Below are positions 5,263 to 10,398 of a stretch of DNA of 10,398 nucleotides, in pieces. The position numbers and the translations under genes are program-made. The stretch is from a virus. How positions within the stretch are numbered: position 1 is the first letter of the stretch; each line of letters begins with the position of its first letter. Below the pieces are notes generated by a model that saw nothing but the letters and a program-made list of their open reading frames with translations, had not been told where the DNA came from and ran no database searches. The DNA lies in UHGV virus genome UHGV-0267725; one strand, written 5' to 3'.

Positions 5263-5628
5263 ATGACTGAACGCATAGAATTTGTTTTGCCTTACCCGCC
5301 AACGGTGAACACCTACTGGCGACGTCGTGGCAGCACATATTTTGTATCAAAAGCCGGTGAGCGTTATCGCCGTGATGTGGCGCTTATTGTTCGCCAGCAG
5401 CAGTTGAAATTAAGCCTGTCCGGACGGCTGGCGATAAAGATTATTGCAGAGCCACCGGATAAACGTCGTCGTGACCTGGACAATATCCTGAAAGCACCAC
5501 TGGATGCGCTGACGCATGCCGGATTACTCATAGACGACGAGCAGTTTGATGAAATCAATATTGTGCGCGGTCAGCGCGTTCCTGGGGGGCGGCTGGGCGT
5601 GAAGATTTACAAAATTGAGAGTGAGTGA
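5263..5628 (+). CDS. rusA: RusA-family Holliday junction resolvase (121 aa)
   Basis: ATG 5263 directly follows the upstream TAA. Translation contains LPYPPTVNTYWRRRG, PDKRRRDLDNILKAPLDALTHAGLLIDDEQ and GGRLGV, matching the conserved RusA motifs, including the catalytic Asp cluster. Confidence 0.9.
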   Translation: MTERIEFVLPYPPTVNTYWRRRGSTYFVSKAGERYRRDVALIVRQQQLKLSLSGRLAIKIIAEPPDKRRRDLDNILKAPLDALTHAGLLIDDEQFDEINIVRGQRVPGGRLGVKIYKIESE

Positions 5629-6179
5629 TCGTAAATATGATATACCCGGAAATTACAGGCAAAAGCGGCGAGCATTTACGTCTAAAAACGCTGGAAGCCG
5701 TCTGGATCCAGGGGAAATTACGGATGTGGGGGCGTTGGTCGTATATAGGTGGTGGCAAAACAGGAAATATGTTCAATCAGTTGCTGGCATCCAAAAAACT
5801 GACAAAAACCGCAATCAATGAAGCCCTGCGTAGAATCAGGGAGTCAGGGATTGATAAACCAGAGCTGGAAGCATTCTTGCGAGAGATGATCGCTGGCAGA
5901 CAGAAGAGCTGGTTGTCTCACTGTACTGATGCAGAGGCGTTACGCATTGATGGGGTGATAAGTAAAGCGCTTGCACGTTATCCTGGATTGATTGATATCC
6001 TGCGGCAAAGATACGAAGGGCGGGGGATGAGTAAACGCAAAATGGCTGAATTGTTGAATGAGGTGCACCCGGAATGGTGTTTTAGTACATGCGAAAAGCG
6101 AATTGCTAATTGGTTGGCTGTTGCTGAATATGCGCTATACATCCCTATGCGAGAATCGTTTGCTCAAAAAATGTCTTGA
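5625..6179 (+). CDS. Q-position protein, putative late-gene antiterminator (184 aa from GTG 5625, or 180 aa from ATG 5637)
   Basis: The start overlaps the rusA stop (GTGA). The gene lies immediately upstream of a promoter-like element and a strong intrinsic terminator, which is the lambdoid Q/pR'/tR' position. The protein has no obvious Cys4 finger, so its family is uncertain (a non-lambda-type Q or a DUF). The functional call is positional inference only. Confidence 0.7.
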   Translation: MIVNMIYPEITGKSGEHLRLKTLEAVWIQGKLRMWGRWSYIGGGKTGNMFNQLLASKKLTKTAINEALRRIRESGIDKPELEAFLREMIAGRQKSWLSHCTDAEALRIDGVISKALARYPGLIDILRQRYEGRGMSKRKMAELLNEVHPEWCFSTCEKRIANWLAVAEYALYIPMRESFAQKMS

Positions 6180-7857: not shown

Positions 7858-7933
7858 GGCCCTTTAGCTCAGTGGTGAGAGCGAGCGACTCATAATCGCC
7901 AGGTCGCTGGTTCAAATCCAGCAAGGGCCACCA
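7858..7933 (+). tRNA. ileZ: tRNA with anticodon CAU, Ile2 (lysidine) type, ileZ-like; 76 nt
   Basis: I folded the cloverleaf by hand: acceptor GGCCCTT/AAGGGCC, D-stem GCTC/GAGC, anticodon loop CTCATAA, T-arm GCTGG-TTCAAAT-CCAGC, discriminator A, encoded CCA. The sequence closely resembles E. coli tRNA-Ile2 as I recall it. Confidence 0.9.
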
Positions 7934-7934
7934 A

Positions 7935-8011
7935 CCGCCATTAGCTCATCGGGATAGAACGCCAGCCTTCGAAGCTGGTTTCGCGGGGTTCGAGTCTCCG
8001 ATGGCGGTCCA
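7935..8011 (+). tRNA. argN: tRNA-Arg, anticodon UCG, argN-like; 77 nt
   Basis: Acceptor CCGCCAT/ATGGCGG, anticodon stem CCAGC/GCTGG with loop CTTCGAA, T-arm CGGGG-TTCGAGT-CTCCG with one G-U pair, encoded CCA. The D-stem has one mismatch. Confidence 0.88.
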
Positions 8012-8024
8012 TTATCGGTATTCT

Positions 8025-8101
8025 GCGTTGTTAGCTCAGCCGGACAGAGCAATTGCCTTCTAAGCAATCGGTCACTGGTTCGAATCCAGTACAACGCACC
8101 A
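8025..8101 (+). tRNA. argO: tRNA-Arg, anticodon UCU, argO-like; 77 nt
   Basis: Acceptor GCGTTGT/ACAACGC, anticodon stem ATTGC/GCAAT with loop CTTCTAA, T-arm ACTGG-TTCGAAT-CCAGT, discriminator A, encoded CCA. Confidence 0.9.
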
Positions 8102-8853: not shown

Positions 8854-9068
8854 TTTTTTTGTTTACTGTTTATTAAAAACACTTCTGCATGGTGAATCCC
8901 CCTGTGCGGAGGGGCGACTGGTGTAGGTAGCATTTATTATGTTATAGGCAAGCCGACGCGGGTTCAGTGACACCGGCTGAATTCACCGGGAGGCACCCGG
9001 CACCATGCGCTGCAACAAAAGTGTTATTTCTGTTTTTCTCAAACTATCATCGTTATCCCTTTATTTCC

Positions 9069-9095
9069 GGCTGCGCATGGCGCGGCCTTTTTTTT
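9069..9095 (+). terminator. Rho-independent terminator inside the long non-coding stretch
   Basis: An 8-bp stem GGCTGCGC (9069-9076) pairs with GCGCGGCC (9080-9087) with one G-U pair, around the loop ATG, followed by 8 T (9088-9095). Confidence 0.7.
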
Positions 9096-9276
9096 ACGAC
9101 CAGCCACTGGCAGATGGTCATCCTGTGATTTGATTCCGGTTCCGGCTTTTTAACTCTGTTCCTGTACACGGGAGAAATTCGATGTCGATTAATCGTTATG
9201 ATATTGGTTACACGAAGTACCACGTATGGTGTTGAGATAAAAAGCCTGGTGCCAGAGGTAAATGCAGCAGCATCAT

Positions 9277-9325
9277 AAAAAAAGAGCCAGCGCAGAAGAG
9301 AACGGGTAAAAGAGTCTGCGCTGGC
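9277..9325 (-). terminator. Candidate minus-strand terminator / 11-bp perfect inverted repeat
   Basis: GCCAGCGCAGA (9286-9296) and TCTGCGCTGGC (9315-9325) are perfect inverted repeats separated by 18 nt. On the minus strand the hairpin is followed by TCTTTTTTT (complement of 9277-9285). The loop is long for a classic terminator, so this could instead be a protein-binding site. Confidence 0.4.
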
Positions 9326-9504
9326 GTGGGGATATTCCCCGTGGAGAAATGATATGTAACACACATCGGGAACCTTTCTATATAAACATTATCATTATTG
9401 TCAATCATAACAGTCAGGTATTATGACGTTTATGCCTCAGGGACATCAGGAATTAACTGGTGGCTTTTTATTGTTGTCAGCTTCCGGATAACGGGAGACG
9501 GGGT

Positions 9505-9720
9505 ATGGACCAGATGGAAAAAATCACAACAGGTGTGTCATACACCACTTCAGCGGTGGGGACGGGATACTGGCTACTGCAGTTGCTGGACAAAGTCTCC
9601 CCATCCCAGTGGGTGGCAATAGGTGTATTGGGTAGCCTGGTGTTTGGCCTGCTGACGTATCTGACAAACCTTTATTTCAAGATTAAAGAAGACAAGCGTA
9701 AGGCTGCACGGGGAGAGTAA
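9505..9720 (+). CDS. S: Class II holin, phage 21 S-type pinholin with dual start (71 aa antiholin from ATG 9505, 68 aa holin from ATG 9514)
   Basis: GGGAGA (9493-9498) precedes ATG 9505. Translation [71 protein letters not shown] has the Met1/Met4 dual-start motif, two transmembrane segments and a basic C-terminus. It is near-identical in pattern to S21/EssD as I recall it. Confidence 0.9.
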
Positions 9721-9724
9721 TTCA

Positions 9725-9943
9725 ATGACTCAAAACTATGAACTGATTGTGAAAGGGACCCGCAATTTTGAGAATAAAGTTACGGTAATCTTAACGTTAC
9801 AGGACAAAGAACGTTTTGCCGGTGAAATTTTTGATCTGAACATCAACCTTGAGCGACTTGAAGGAGCTGGTTTGGATTATTATGAAGTTACTGCGGTAAA
9901 ACATGCCAAACAGTTCTTGAGAGATTTGGCTGAAAAAATATAA
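9725..9943 (+). CDS. Hypothetical protein (72 aa), AT-rich gene directly after the holin
   Basis: ATG 9725 is 7 nt after GGGAGAG (9711-9717). Translation is MTQNYELIVKGTRNFENKVTVILTLQDKERFAGEIFDLNINLERLEGAGLDYYEVTAVKHAKQFLRDLAEKI. GC is about 37% by my hand count. There is no SAR or transmembrane segment, so it is not an endolysin. Confidence 0.6.
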   Translation: MTQNYELIVKGTRNFENKVTVILTLQDKERFAGEIFDLNINLERLEGAGLDYYEVTAVKHAKQFLRDLAEKI

Positions 9944-9962
9944 AGCGGCATTACTGCCGCTT
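9943..9962. terminator. Bidirectional terminator between the convergent genes
   Basis: Perfect 8-bp palindromic stem AAGCGGCA (9943-9950) / TGCCGCTT (9955-9962) around the loop TTAC. On the minus strand it is followed by TTTATATTTTTT. On the + strand the downstream T-tract is weaker. Confidence 0.55.
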
Positions 9963-9967
9963 AGAAA

Positions 9968-10264
9968 TTATTCAATGTCTGGTAGCTTATCAAAGATTTC
10001 GGATACTCTTATATTTGTCATATAAGCAAATTGAGATTCTGCCAGCTCTTTGGGTGATTTTCCCGCTTTTTCTGAGCCAAAAATTGTTTCTAAAGCCAGC
10101 ATGTTATATTTGAGAACCTCTTCTCGAGTTTTACCTGATAATTTTGCGGTAACAGCAATATAAAAAGGCAACACTTTATCCAGAAGGTCGTTGTGTTTTG
10201 TCAGTTGTGGTAATACCACATCAAGTTGCTTACTGATTGGTTTGAATGGATCTATACCGTTCAT
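9968..10264 (-). CDS. Hypothetical protein (98 aa), AT-rich, convergent with the upstream gene
   Basis: Minus-strand ATG (complement of 10262-10264) has SD AAGGGA about 9 nt upstream. Translation MNGIDPFKPISKQLDVVLPQLTKHNDLLDKVLPFYIAVTAKLSGKTREEVLKYNMLALETIFGSEKAGKSPKELAESQFAYMTNIRVSEIFDKLPDIE is soluble and Lys/Glu-rich. The stop at 9968 is followed by the terminator at 9943-9962. Confidence 0.65.
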   Translation of the reverse strand: MNGIDPFKPISKQLDVVLPQLTKHNDLLDKVLPFYIAVTAKLSGKTREEVLKYNMLALETIFGSEKAGKSPKELAESQFAYMTNIRVSEIFDKLPDIE

Positions 10265-10398
10265 AGTTACATTCCCTTATCAGAGGTAATCAGCCATCCC
10301 GCCTTTATTACATACGCCAGTATCCACCACTGACGGGCTGAGTGCTTAACATATCTAGAGATTAGAAACTGATAAATCCTGATAAATATCCATGAATG

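Follow-up and report, generated by a model that had tools for sequence, protein, structure and literature searches.

An antisense cargo cassette with a structured leader abuts a tail-less YdfR/DUF1327 gene between the holin and endolysin of phage genome UHGV-0267725

Why should two small, AT-rich genes that face each other tail to tail lie between the holin and the endolysin of a phage? The question is raised by the virus genome UHGV-0267725, a prophage of E. coli type, of which we analysed a stretch of 10,398 nucleotides (the window). Here, open reading frame (ORF) A, which encodes 72 amino acids (aa) and occupies positions 9725-9943 on the plus strand, has the orientation of the late (lysis) operon, and ORF-B, which encodes 98 aa and occupies positions 9968-10264 on the minus strand, is antisense to it. 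An earlier note on this DNA had taken the pair for a foreign two-gene insertion at a cargo hotspot. Its ORF coordinates and its hand-counted GC content (about 37% against about 50% in the neighbourhood) agreed with an ORF check and a windowed GC calculation, which gave 0.370 for ORF-A and 0.360 for ORF-B compared with 0.495 for the holin gene and 0.496 for the whole window.

We found that the late operons of temperate enterobacterial phages harbour a widespread class of antisense cassettes, to which this locus belongs. The parts of such a cassette are a conserved promoter-like block, a leader RNA with two helices (P1 and P2), a small cargo ORF and a terminator hairpin, and the class usually abuts a small late-operon gene tail to tail. 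The cargo in the window is ORF-B.

ORF-B, its convergent partners and its leader

ORF-B homologues with 56-100% identity were collected from 33 loci in Escherichia, Cronobacter, Serratia, Buttiauxella, Yersinia and viral contigs. A small late-strand ORF converges on ORF-B and ends 13-29 bp from its stop codon in 33 of 33 loci. These loci represent at least six slots. In E. coli the pair lies between holin and lysozyme genes, and in Cronobacter it follows an Rz fragment in a different lysis cassette; in the other slots it lies between Q and an unrelated holin gene, between the tape measure gene and M, and between I and J with either type of partner. In all slots the partner points the same way as the late genes around it, and ORF-B runs antisense to these genes. 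The suggestion of the earlier note that the two genes behave as a unit was therefore upheld.

The partners are of two types. The first, a DUF1327 protein, keeps a length of exactly 72 aa even where its identity to ORF-A has dropped to 32%; the diverged 72-aa partners at loci L029 and L033 pass the Pfam profile PF07041 with 48.8 and 28.5 bits. The other is a protein of 93-95 aa that forms seven clusters and is about as rare as ORF-B. Its contexts were sampled, not exhaustively, and its rarity is consistent with co-occurrence with ORF-B. The 93-aa partner had no informative match in PADLOC, NCBIfam or Pfam, and the same was true of four other reverse genes. Homology of the 93-aa partner to DUF1327 was considered and rejected (hhalign probability below 1%; likeness only in a 17-residue C-terminal helix, E = 0.064). 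Among diverged copies, the ratio of nonsynonymous to synonymous substitution rates was 0.08-0.14 for ORF-B and 0.16-0.45 for the partner. ORF-A and ORF-B are real genes under purifying selection, and the partner evolves several times faster.

When the regions upstream of ORF-B were aligned across slots, a structured 5' leader was found directly 5' of the ribosome-binding site. In the window it spans 10259-10344 on the minus strand (covariance model R1: 79.6 bits, E = 4e-20). The invariant outer stem, P1, pairs 10341-10336 (UCAGCC) with 10295-10290 (GGCUGA), and P2 is an inner hairpin of 8 bp that pairs 10335-10328 with 10322-10315. The helices are followed on their 3' side by ACCUCU, which resembles an anti-Shine-Dalgarno (anti-SD) sequence, by the Shine-Dalgarno (SD) sequence AAGGGA and by the ATG. 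Compensatory variants of P2 distinguish the contexts (CAGUG/CACUG, CCGUG/CACGG, CCAUG/CAUGG and CAGCG/CGCUG), and RNAalifold predicts both helices. Among 61 distinct copies, P1 was 99.5% paired and P2 95.9% paired, the latter with double changes at 5 of its 8 pairs. The covariation score was 0.254 compared with 0.150 in shuffles, none of 500 of which reached 0.254, and slid controls were 27-48% paired. Because U.G is the commonest pair at one position, the structure belongs to the cargo-sense RNA. A possible third helix or pseudoknot, CAGAGG-CCUCUG, in which SD-like AGAGG meets anti-SD-like CCUCU, was 80% paired with few double changes.

A search of Rfam 15 with 10259-10344 gave no match, either at the gathering threshold or at E <= 10, and the leader sequence was not met in the literature searched. 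At least 219 of 5,426 E. coli genomes carry it, and the matches listed are without an annotated feature. The leader is the most distinctive feature of the locus and appears to be undescribed. A short leader variant that lacks P2 was also seen (loci L132, L134, L136, L139, L153, L160, L197 and L198). It reads TCAGCCC, about 14 nt, then CCGAAGG-GATGGCTGA-TTAACTTCGG; it keeps a CCGAAG/CUUCGG helix around the GGCUGA box, scores 32-40 bits with R1 and precedes small antisense ORFs.

Upstream of the leader lies a promoter-like block (10348-10375, minus strand), in which a -35-like TTATCA (10375-10370) and a -10-like TATGTT (10353-10348) are separated by a 16-nt spacer and which ends 6 nt before P1. 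The corresponding block, ATATCAGGAT...CCCTGG-TA(A/T)(G)GT with a TAnnnT box, is conserved in 57 upstream regions and ends 5-7 nt before P1. Judged from its sequence, the block looks like the promoter of ORF-B and may include an operator-like inverted repeat. In the 57 leader loci (70 nt upstream of the leader; window equivalent 10346-10391, minus strand), the -35 and -10 positions flank an inverted repeat, CAGGGT...ACCCTG. Further, most of the tail-operon copies have a GC-rich hairpin further upstream (GCCACC..GGTGGC or GCCGC..GCGGC) that shows compensatory variation. The inverted repeat and this hairpin may be an operator and an insulator or terminator, respectively. A candidate LexA box, TACTGT..ATATCAGG, was rejected by inspection, since its spacing is CTG-N9-CAG and not N10.

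At the other end of ORF-B, a hairpin at 9943-9962 overlaps the stop codon of ORF-A. It has a GC-rich stem of 8 bp and a 4-nt loop, and is followed on the minus strand by TATATTTTTT. The earlier note had called it a perfect bidirectional terminator. The stem is indeed perfect (AAGCGGCA-GTAA-TGCCGCTT; free energy -12.8 kcal/mol, z = -3.9, with 0 of 200 shuffles folding as well), but the T-run is on the minus strand only and the plus strand continues with AGAAATTATT, so that the hairpin is the intrinsic terminator of ORF-B and is not bidirectional. This one-sidedness makes sense, because late transcription must cross the hairpin to reach the endolysin gene. In every context of ORF-B, an equivalent GC-rich hairpin separates the two convergent stop codons.

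The wider class was collected in two stages, first a pattern scan over viral contigs and then a covariance-model search, which together added dozens more copies at 32-86 bits; the following counts rest on 60 leader copies with a complete downstream ORF. These 60 copies carry 18 unrelated cargo families (56-210 aa), one of which is ORF-B. The cargo is antisense to the flanking large ORFs in 52 of them and co-oriented with these ORFs in none. A convergent partner, found in 48, ends a few tens of bases from the cargo stop codon or overlaps it. The partners are DUF1327-like, of the 93-aa type, or proteins that begin with MTLEQRVEALEK... and have variable C-termini. Annotated examples in E. coli are a DUF1883 gene antisense before a holin gene, and a 73-aa gene that is antisense after a tape-measure gene and faces a convergent 72-aa gene.

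Tail-operon partners often have the conserved, coiled-coil-like N-terminus MTLEQRVEALEK..., and their variable C-terminus extends 14-47 nt over the cargo's 3' end (loci L123, L130, L144, L165, L171, L191, L196, L206, L208, L213 and others carry this N-terminus). In Yersinia (L012 and L187) the MTLEQRVEALEK N-terminus is fused to the 93-aa partner domain, forming a protein of 181 aa. Three single phage contigs (L143, L144 and L157) hold two leader copies with different cargos; thus one phage can hold more than one cassette of the class.

Borders of the insertion and identity of the two genes

The break-points of the insertion were located by blastn against eight comparator loci (L034, L035, L036, L048, L049, L052, L057 and L061) and by the upstream alignment. 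DNA homology to prophages with the order holin-ydfR-lysozyme runs through the holin gene and ORF-A codons 1 to 53-63, until about 9885-9913. It restarts, depending on the comparator, at 10291-10382, which is 10-100 bp 5' of the start of the lysozyme gene. The latter gene, an rrrQ-type endolysin with its ATG at 10392, is cut by the window end, so that 10392-10398 (plus strand) of it is present; it was identified by alignment to near-identical RefSeq loci, in which it is annotated as lysozyme/rrrQ. The variable cassette accordingly occupies 9886-10347, with its left edge at 9886-9914 and its right edge at 10290-10347 by comparator, and includes the last 10-19 codons of ORF-A. The insertion thus comprises the hairpin, ORF-B and the leader together with only the C-terminal end of ORF-A, and not two whole genes as the earlier note had it.

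We surveyed the slot in 83 loci sampled via DUF1327 (L034-L116; 3 E. coli genomes and 80 viral contigs). The length of DUF1327 co-varies with the identity of the convergent reverse gene. DUF1327 of 72 aa faces ORF-B (98 aa), that of 114 aa a 90-aa gene (phrog_2411, function unknown), that of 183 aa an 86-aa gene (phrog_2572, function unknown), that of 161 aa a 91-aa gene and that of 268 aa a 104-aa gene; the forms of 103, 104 or 116 aa face no reverse gene. Related prophages, then, have none or any of at least five unrelated reverse genes in this slot, as expected of the cargo hotspot that had been proposed. That very similar prophage neighbourhoods carry different cassettes suggests exchange through recombination in the conserved flanks. 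Several DUF1327 tails are alike until ...SLKTPP and divergent beyond, which suggests recurrent break-points. One protein (P0080, 72 aa) that seemed to be a second, independent short DUF1327 was rejected because it is a frameshifted 183-aa form.

According to the earlier note, neither protein has a recognisable motif. This is correct for ORF-B, which belongs to no known family, but ORF-A matches PF07041 (DUF1327/YdfR) with 92.4 bits (cut-off 25; E = 2e-26), its residues 1-72 corresponding to profile positions 1-72 of 93. The YdfR family is named for a gene of the Qin prophage located between essQ and rrrQ. Like K-12 YdfR, ORF-A lies directly after a class II holin gene and matches the hidden Markov model (HMM) over its whole length. 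Unlike the other YdfR forms, it lacks a C-terminal tail of 30-110 residues: the full-length architecture of core plus tail has 84-119 aa in the aligned forms, whereas ORF-A diverges from the common long forms from about residue 69 and stops at residue 72. Further, ORF-A is linked to ORF-B, whereas K-12 ydfR directly precedes rrrQ. ORF-A is 64% identical to a 103-aa form (P0039) that resembles K-12 YdfR. Its AlphaFold2 model (predicted local distance difference test score [pLDDT] 76) has three beta strands and then one helix. ORF-A thus represents, in a new form without a tail, a known family that is poorly understood.

ORF-A starts 4 nt past the stop codon of the S21-type (class II) holin gene (9505-9720, plus strand; Pfam PF04971 Phage_holin_2_1, E = 1.1e-32), and its translation is probably coupled to that of the holin. 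The strong ribosome-binding site described for it was confirmed as GGAGAG, 7 nt upstream of the ATG. The earlier note had assumed that in S21-type cassettes the holin gene directly precedes the endolysin gene. However, a segment of holin plus DUF1327 was matched in 4,886 of 5,426 complete E. coli genomes (about 90%), and the YdfR/DUF1327 core is near-ubiquitous beside S21-type holins of E. coli prophages. For this group of phages the assumption thus fails. The GC content of the part of ORF-A that is shared with other prophages is 0.379. The low GC content of ORF-A is therefore a trait of the DUF1327 region and no sign of recent import, contrary to the foreign origin that had been proposed. The other possibility raised in the earlier note, that these are ordinary components of the lysis cassette, holds for ORF-A only.

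YdfR has been linked to RNase E and RNA. A two-hybrid screen with RNase G as bait recovered clones of exactly YdfR residues 1-72, which interacted with RNase G, full-length RNase E and RNase E 1-597; full-length Strep-YdfR co-purified Rne1-598 and DNase-resistant nucleic acid (RNA); and overproduction of YdfR was non-toxic and altered few transcripts (PMC13232886, 2026). In the literature searched, this study and that on Tab/anti-Tab (see below) were the only relevant ones. Judged by alignment, ORF-A corresponds to this YdfR 1-72 fragment, which carries the RNase E-binding surface.

ORF-B is assigned only to a PHROG of unknown function (phrog_25324). It had no informative match in Pfam, NCBIfam or PADLOC, and its AlphaFold2 model (pLDDT 85), a cytoplasmic four-helix protein, had no specific structural neighbour in the PDB or BFVD (Foldseek against viral models, best E = 1.4). 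Neither protein has a transmembrane segment, as had been noted, and both models are soluble. The family profiles of ORF-A and ORF-B found nothing below E = 0.05 among solved structures. PADLOC gave 0 matches for ORF-A, ORF-B and five related partners and cargos, and the toxin, antitoxin and defence models of PADLOC, NCBIfam and Pfam gave nothing relevant for either protein.

The ORF-B family is small, with 16 clusters (90% identity) among 5.8 billion proteins; an exhaustive search of 1.84 billion proteins with its HMM profile gave 6 representatives. One of these six (P0114) was rejected as a chance match, a plant repeat protein that looks like FF-domain repeats. Among the complete E. coli genomes, 61 of 5,426 carry ORF-B, always at 99% identity or more and several of them in decayed Qin-like prophages, and the isolated Escherichia phage Evi (LR597642) carries the ORF-B pair unchanged in the same context. 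ORF-B has its own factor-independent terminator (hairpin and T-run on its own strand), is present or absent among related phages and deviates in GC content (0.36 compared with 0.50). The moron-type anatomy proposed in the earlier note was thus borne out, and ORF-B is an uncharacterised moron-type cargo.

Classical morons include bor of lambda, which is reverse-oriented after the lysis genes, and gp15 of HK97. They resemble the present cassettes in being independent units in a late operon, with their own terminator, presence or absence and deviating composition. In contrast, they are single genes, whereas here one common leader and putative promoter serve many unrelated cargos, most of which lie beside a convergent late gene. 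We know of no shared regulatory RNA for classical morons. A convergent layout on opposite strands is also found with the immunity genes of pore-forming colicins, which lie between the effector and lysis genes, are convergent with the effector and have a constitutive promoter. However, these genes belong to plasmid bacteriocin operons, encode membrane proteins and have no homology to the present pair; moreover, the strand that carries the effector may be the opposite one here.

Readings of the pair

The characterised system that most resembles the pair in design is Tab/anti-Tab of phage JBD26. The tab gene (83 aa, minus strand) is expressed from its own promoter in the prophage, and Tab keeps invading phages from assembling their tails; atab follows the small terminase gene directly on the late strand and is expressed solely while the phage itself goes through its lytic cycle; its product binds Tab and prevents self-inhibition, and tab is always accompanied by atab (PMC10884400). 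In JN811560, atab (13377-13628, plus strand) and tab (13582-13833, minus strand) overlap by 47 nt at their 3' ends. In both systems a small reverse gene with its own terminator and a promoter (here a putative one, the promoter-like block) is wedged between late genes, and the small gene that converges on it from the late strand begins immediately behind the late gene before it. Further, the reverse gene always has its partner (33 of 33 loci for ORF-B), but the converse is untrue, since DUF1327 often occurs without ORF-B. Other features differ. JBD26 is a Mu-like Pseudomonas phage, its slot lies between terminase genes and such a structured leader is not reported there; defence and binding were shown for Tab, whereas the ORF-B pair is known here from sequence and architecture.

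By analogy with this system, ORF-B may be an effector expressed from the prophage and ORF-A a late-expressed neutraliser of it, a reading to which we give slightly less than an even chance. In the lysogen, ORF-B would be made from its own promoter (its expression is assumed) and would serve as an effector, accessory or defensive, that targets incoming phages or a host process, with the leader structure setting its translation or stability. In the lytic phase, late transcription antiterminated by Q would pass the hairpin from the side without a U-tract, run antisense over ORF-B and shut it down. The same transcription would yield ORF-A, which would neutralise ORF-B so that the phage avoids self-inhibition. 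Neutralisation could act on the ORF-B protein or on its mRNA or leader; the latter is conceivable because the YdfR core binds RNase E and RNA. The timing of expression, the activity of ORF-B and its interaction with ORF-A would be those that the analogy suggests. The defence and counter-defence function imagined in the earlier note thus finds a precedent in architecture, but none in homology.

Several observations weigh against an effector and its neutraliser. BLASTP found no sequence similarity to Tab or anti-Tab at E <= 100 and the hhalign probability was 0.2%; the pair is therefore no member of that family and matches it in architecture alone, as a non-homologous variant of the design. ORF-B is joined with two types of partner that have no detectable sequence relationship, and at one I|J slot an unrelated 95-aa partner has taken the place of the 72-aa DUF1327 beside an ORF-B that retains about 76% nucleotide identity. 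DUF1327, in turn, faces at least five unrelated reverse genes or none, and its commonest forms (103, 104 and 116 aa) occur without any reverse gene. This mixing of partners and cargos disfavours a simple, strictly cognate pair of proteins, and DUF1327 therefore has a role of its own. The candidate promoter in the window is a weak sigma-70 match (8 of 12 consensus positions) that a consensus scan did not call. Finally, folded as a single sequence, the leader is no more stable than its shuffles (z = -0.15); therefore, the support for this structure is evolutionary, from covariation, and not thermodynamic.

The prophages that carry DUF1327 of 103, 104 or 116 aa and no reverse gene, the unrelated reverse genes in the same slot, the replaced partner at I|J and the 12 of 60 leader cassettes for which no convergent partner was detectable all favour another explanation, in which the two genes are independent neighbours. 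ORF-A would then be a resident late gene with its own role, for example modulation of RNase E or RNA in lysis, and ORF-B a stand-alone moron of lysogenic conversion. The constant pairing would come from an insertion preference for the 3' ends of a few small late genes, or from a neighbouring piece that was dragged along. The observation that overexpressed YdfR is neither toxic nor strongly perturbing (PMC13232886) also fits. We regard this explanation as substantial but less likely than the first, given that ORF-B is paired in all 33 loci and at least six slots, at 57-85% identity, that its DUF1327 partner stays at exactly 72 aa even at 32% identity, that the 93-aa partner family is about as rare as ORF-B, that the partners are under purifying selection and that the characterised analogue of the same geometry, Tab/anti-Tab, is a functional pair. 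A coupling at the RNA level is still less probable. Here ORF-A and the other partners would be RNA-binding adaptors that pass the cargo mRNA to RNase E, via the leader or a sense/antisense duplex, and so turn the cargo off at the onset of late expression. RNase E's catalytic domain is bound by YdfR 1-72 and RNA co-purified with YdfR (PMC13232886), and the leader is constant over 18 cargo families while the types of partner are few. However, the commonest DUF1327 cassette (114 aa with the 90-aa reverse gene) has no leader, the 93-aa partner has no detectable relationship to DUF1327, and overexpressed YdfR altered few transcripts, although K-12 is without the leader.

Two further explanations are much harder to sustain. 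If both genes were lysis regulators of the timing or antiholin type, specific to S21-type cassettes, one would understand their position between holin and endolysin, the probable translational coupling of ORF-A to the holin and the almost constant adjacency of DUF1327 to a class II holin in E. coli. This is nevertheless very unlikely, because the pair also occurs in tail operons: ORF-B homologues and 72-aa DUF1327 partners are found between I and J and between the tape measure gene and M, as well as beside unrelated types of holin and endolysin. Further, the lack of membrane segments and the soluble folds of both models do not suit it. A toxin-antitoxin or abortive-infection pair, one gene being poison and the other antidote, is the least likely of all. 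Two small, AT-rich, mobile and co-occurring genes would suit such a pair, but they are convergent and hence not co-transcribed, which had already been held against it in the earlier note. The toxin and antitoxin models of PADLOC, Pfam and NCBIfam are without a match, and full-length YdfR is non-toxic when overproduced. ORF-B is moreover intact, at 99% identity or more, in all 61 genomes, several of them with decayed Qin-like prophages.

If ORF-B and ORF-A are indeed an effector and its late neutraliser, YdfR/DUF1327, among the commonest E. coli prophage genes of unknown function, would gain a biological setting tied to the binding of RNase E and RNA. The logic of Tab/anti-Tab, in which a phage must disarm its prophage defence during its own lytic cycle, would no longer be confined to one Pseudomonas phage but would reach a broad enterobacterial class of cassettes. 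The leader RNA would then be a candidate new regulatory RNA and a handle, in sequence and structure, for finding such cassettes and their cargos. It is possible, although somewhat less likely than not, that the promoter block and leader together are an undescribed expression platform that marks a large reservoir of Tab/anti-Tab-like pairs, and that the leader is a new cis-regulatory RNA, perhaps read by YdfR-type partners.

Neighbouring features of the window

Coverage of the window by a complete E. coli genome never reaches 80%; the best single place spans 75% of it at 87% identity, and we therefore consider the prophage a new mosaic. Its last kilobase is 98.9% identical to strain EC12.

The N-terminus of the holin, MDQMEK, has in-frame ATG codons at 9505 and 9514, three codons apart, which we take to fit the dual-start holin/antiholin arrangement of S21; an in-frame GTG at 9460, upstream of the holin start, is probably unused. 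A terminator-like hairpin (9444-9462, plus strand), followed by GCTTTTTATT, lies 40 bp 5' of the holin start. It may be the late-operon terminator targeted by the Q antiterminator, which is encoded at 5625-6179 (DUF1133/Phage_antitermQ). Also upstream of the holin, a 103-aa ORF on the minus strand (9053-9364) has no Pfam match. Its equivalent in EC12 is annotated in RefSeq as a frameshifted, incomplete hypothetical pseudogene, and it may be a decayed, older reverse-strand insertion.

Three tRNA genes lie at 7858-8101 (plus strand), 3' of a DNA methylase gene, and comprise one with a CAT anticodon, Arg-TCG and Arg-TCT. The CAT-anticodon tRNA is called Met by ARAGORN and tRNA-Ile by RefSeq for the EC12 equivalent; it is probably a lysidine-modified Ile2. 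Between the TerB/DUF3927 genes and the holin, positions 8861-9041 (plus strand) match the small RNA STnc100 (Rfam RF02076; 117.6 bits compared with a gathering score of 47, E = 7e-26). This stretch is presumably where a lambdoid late promoter and its leader would be expected.

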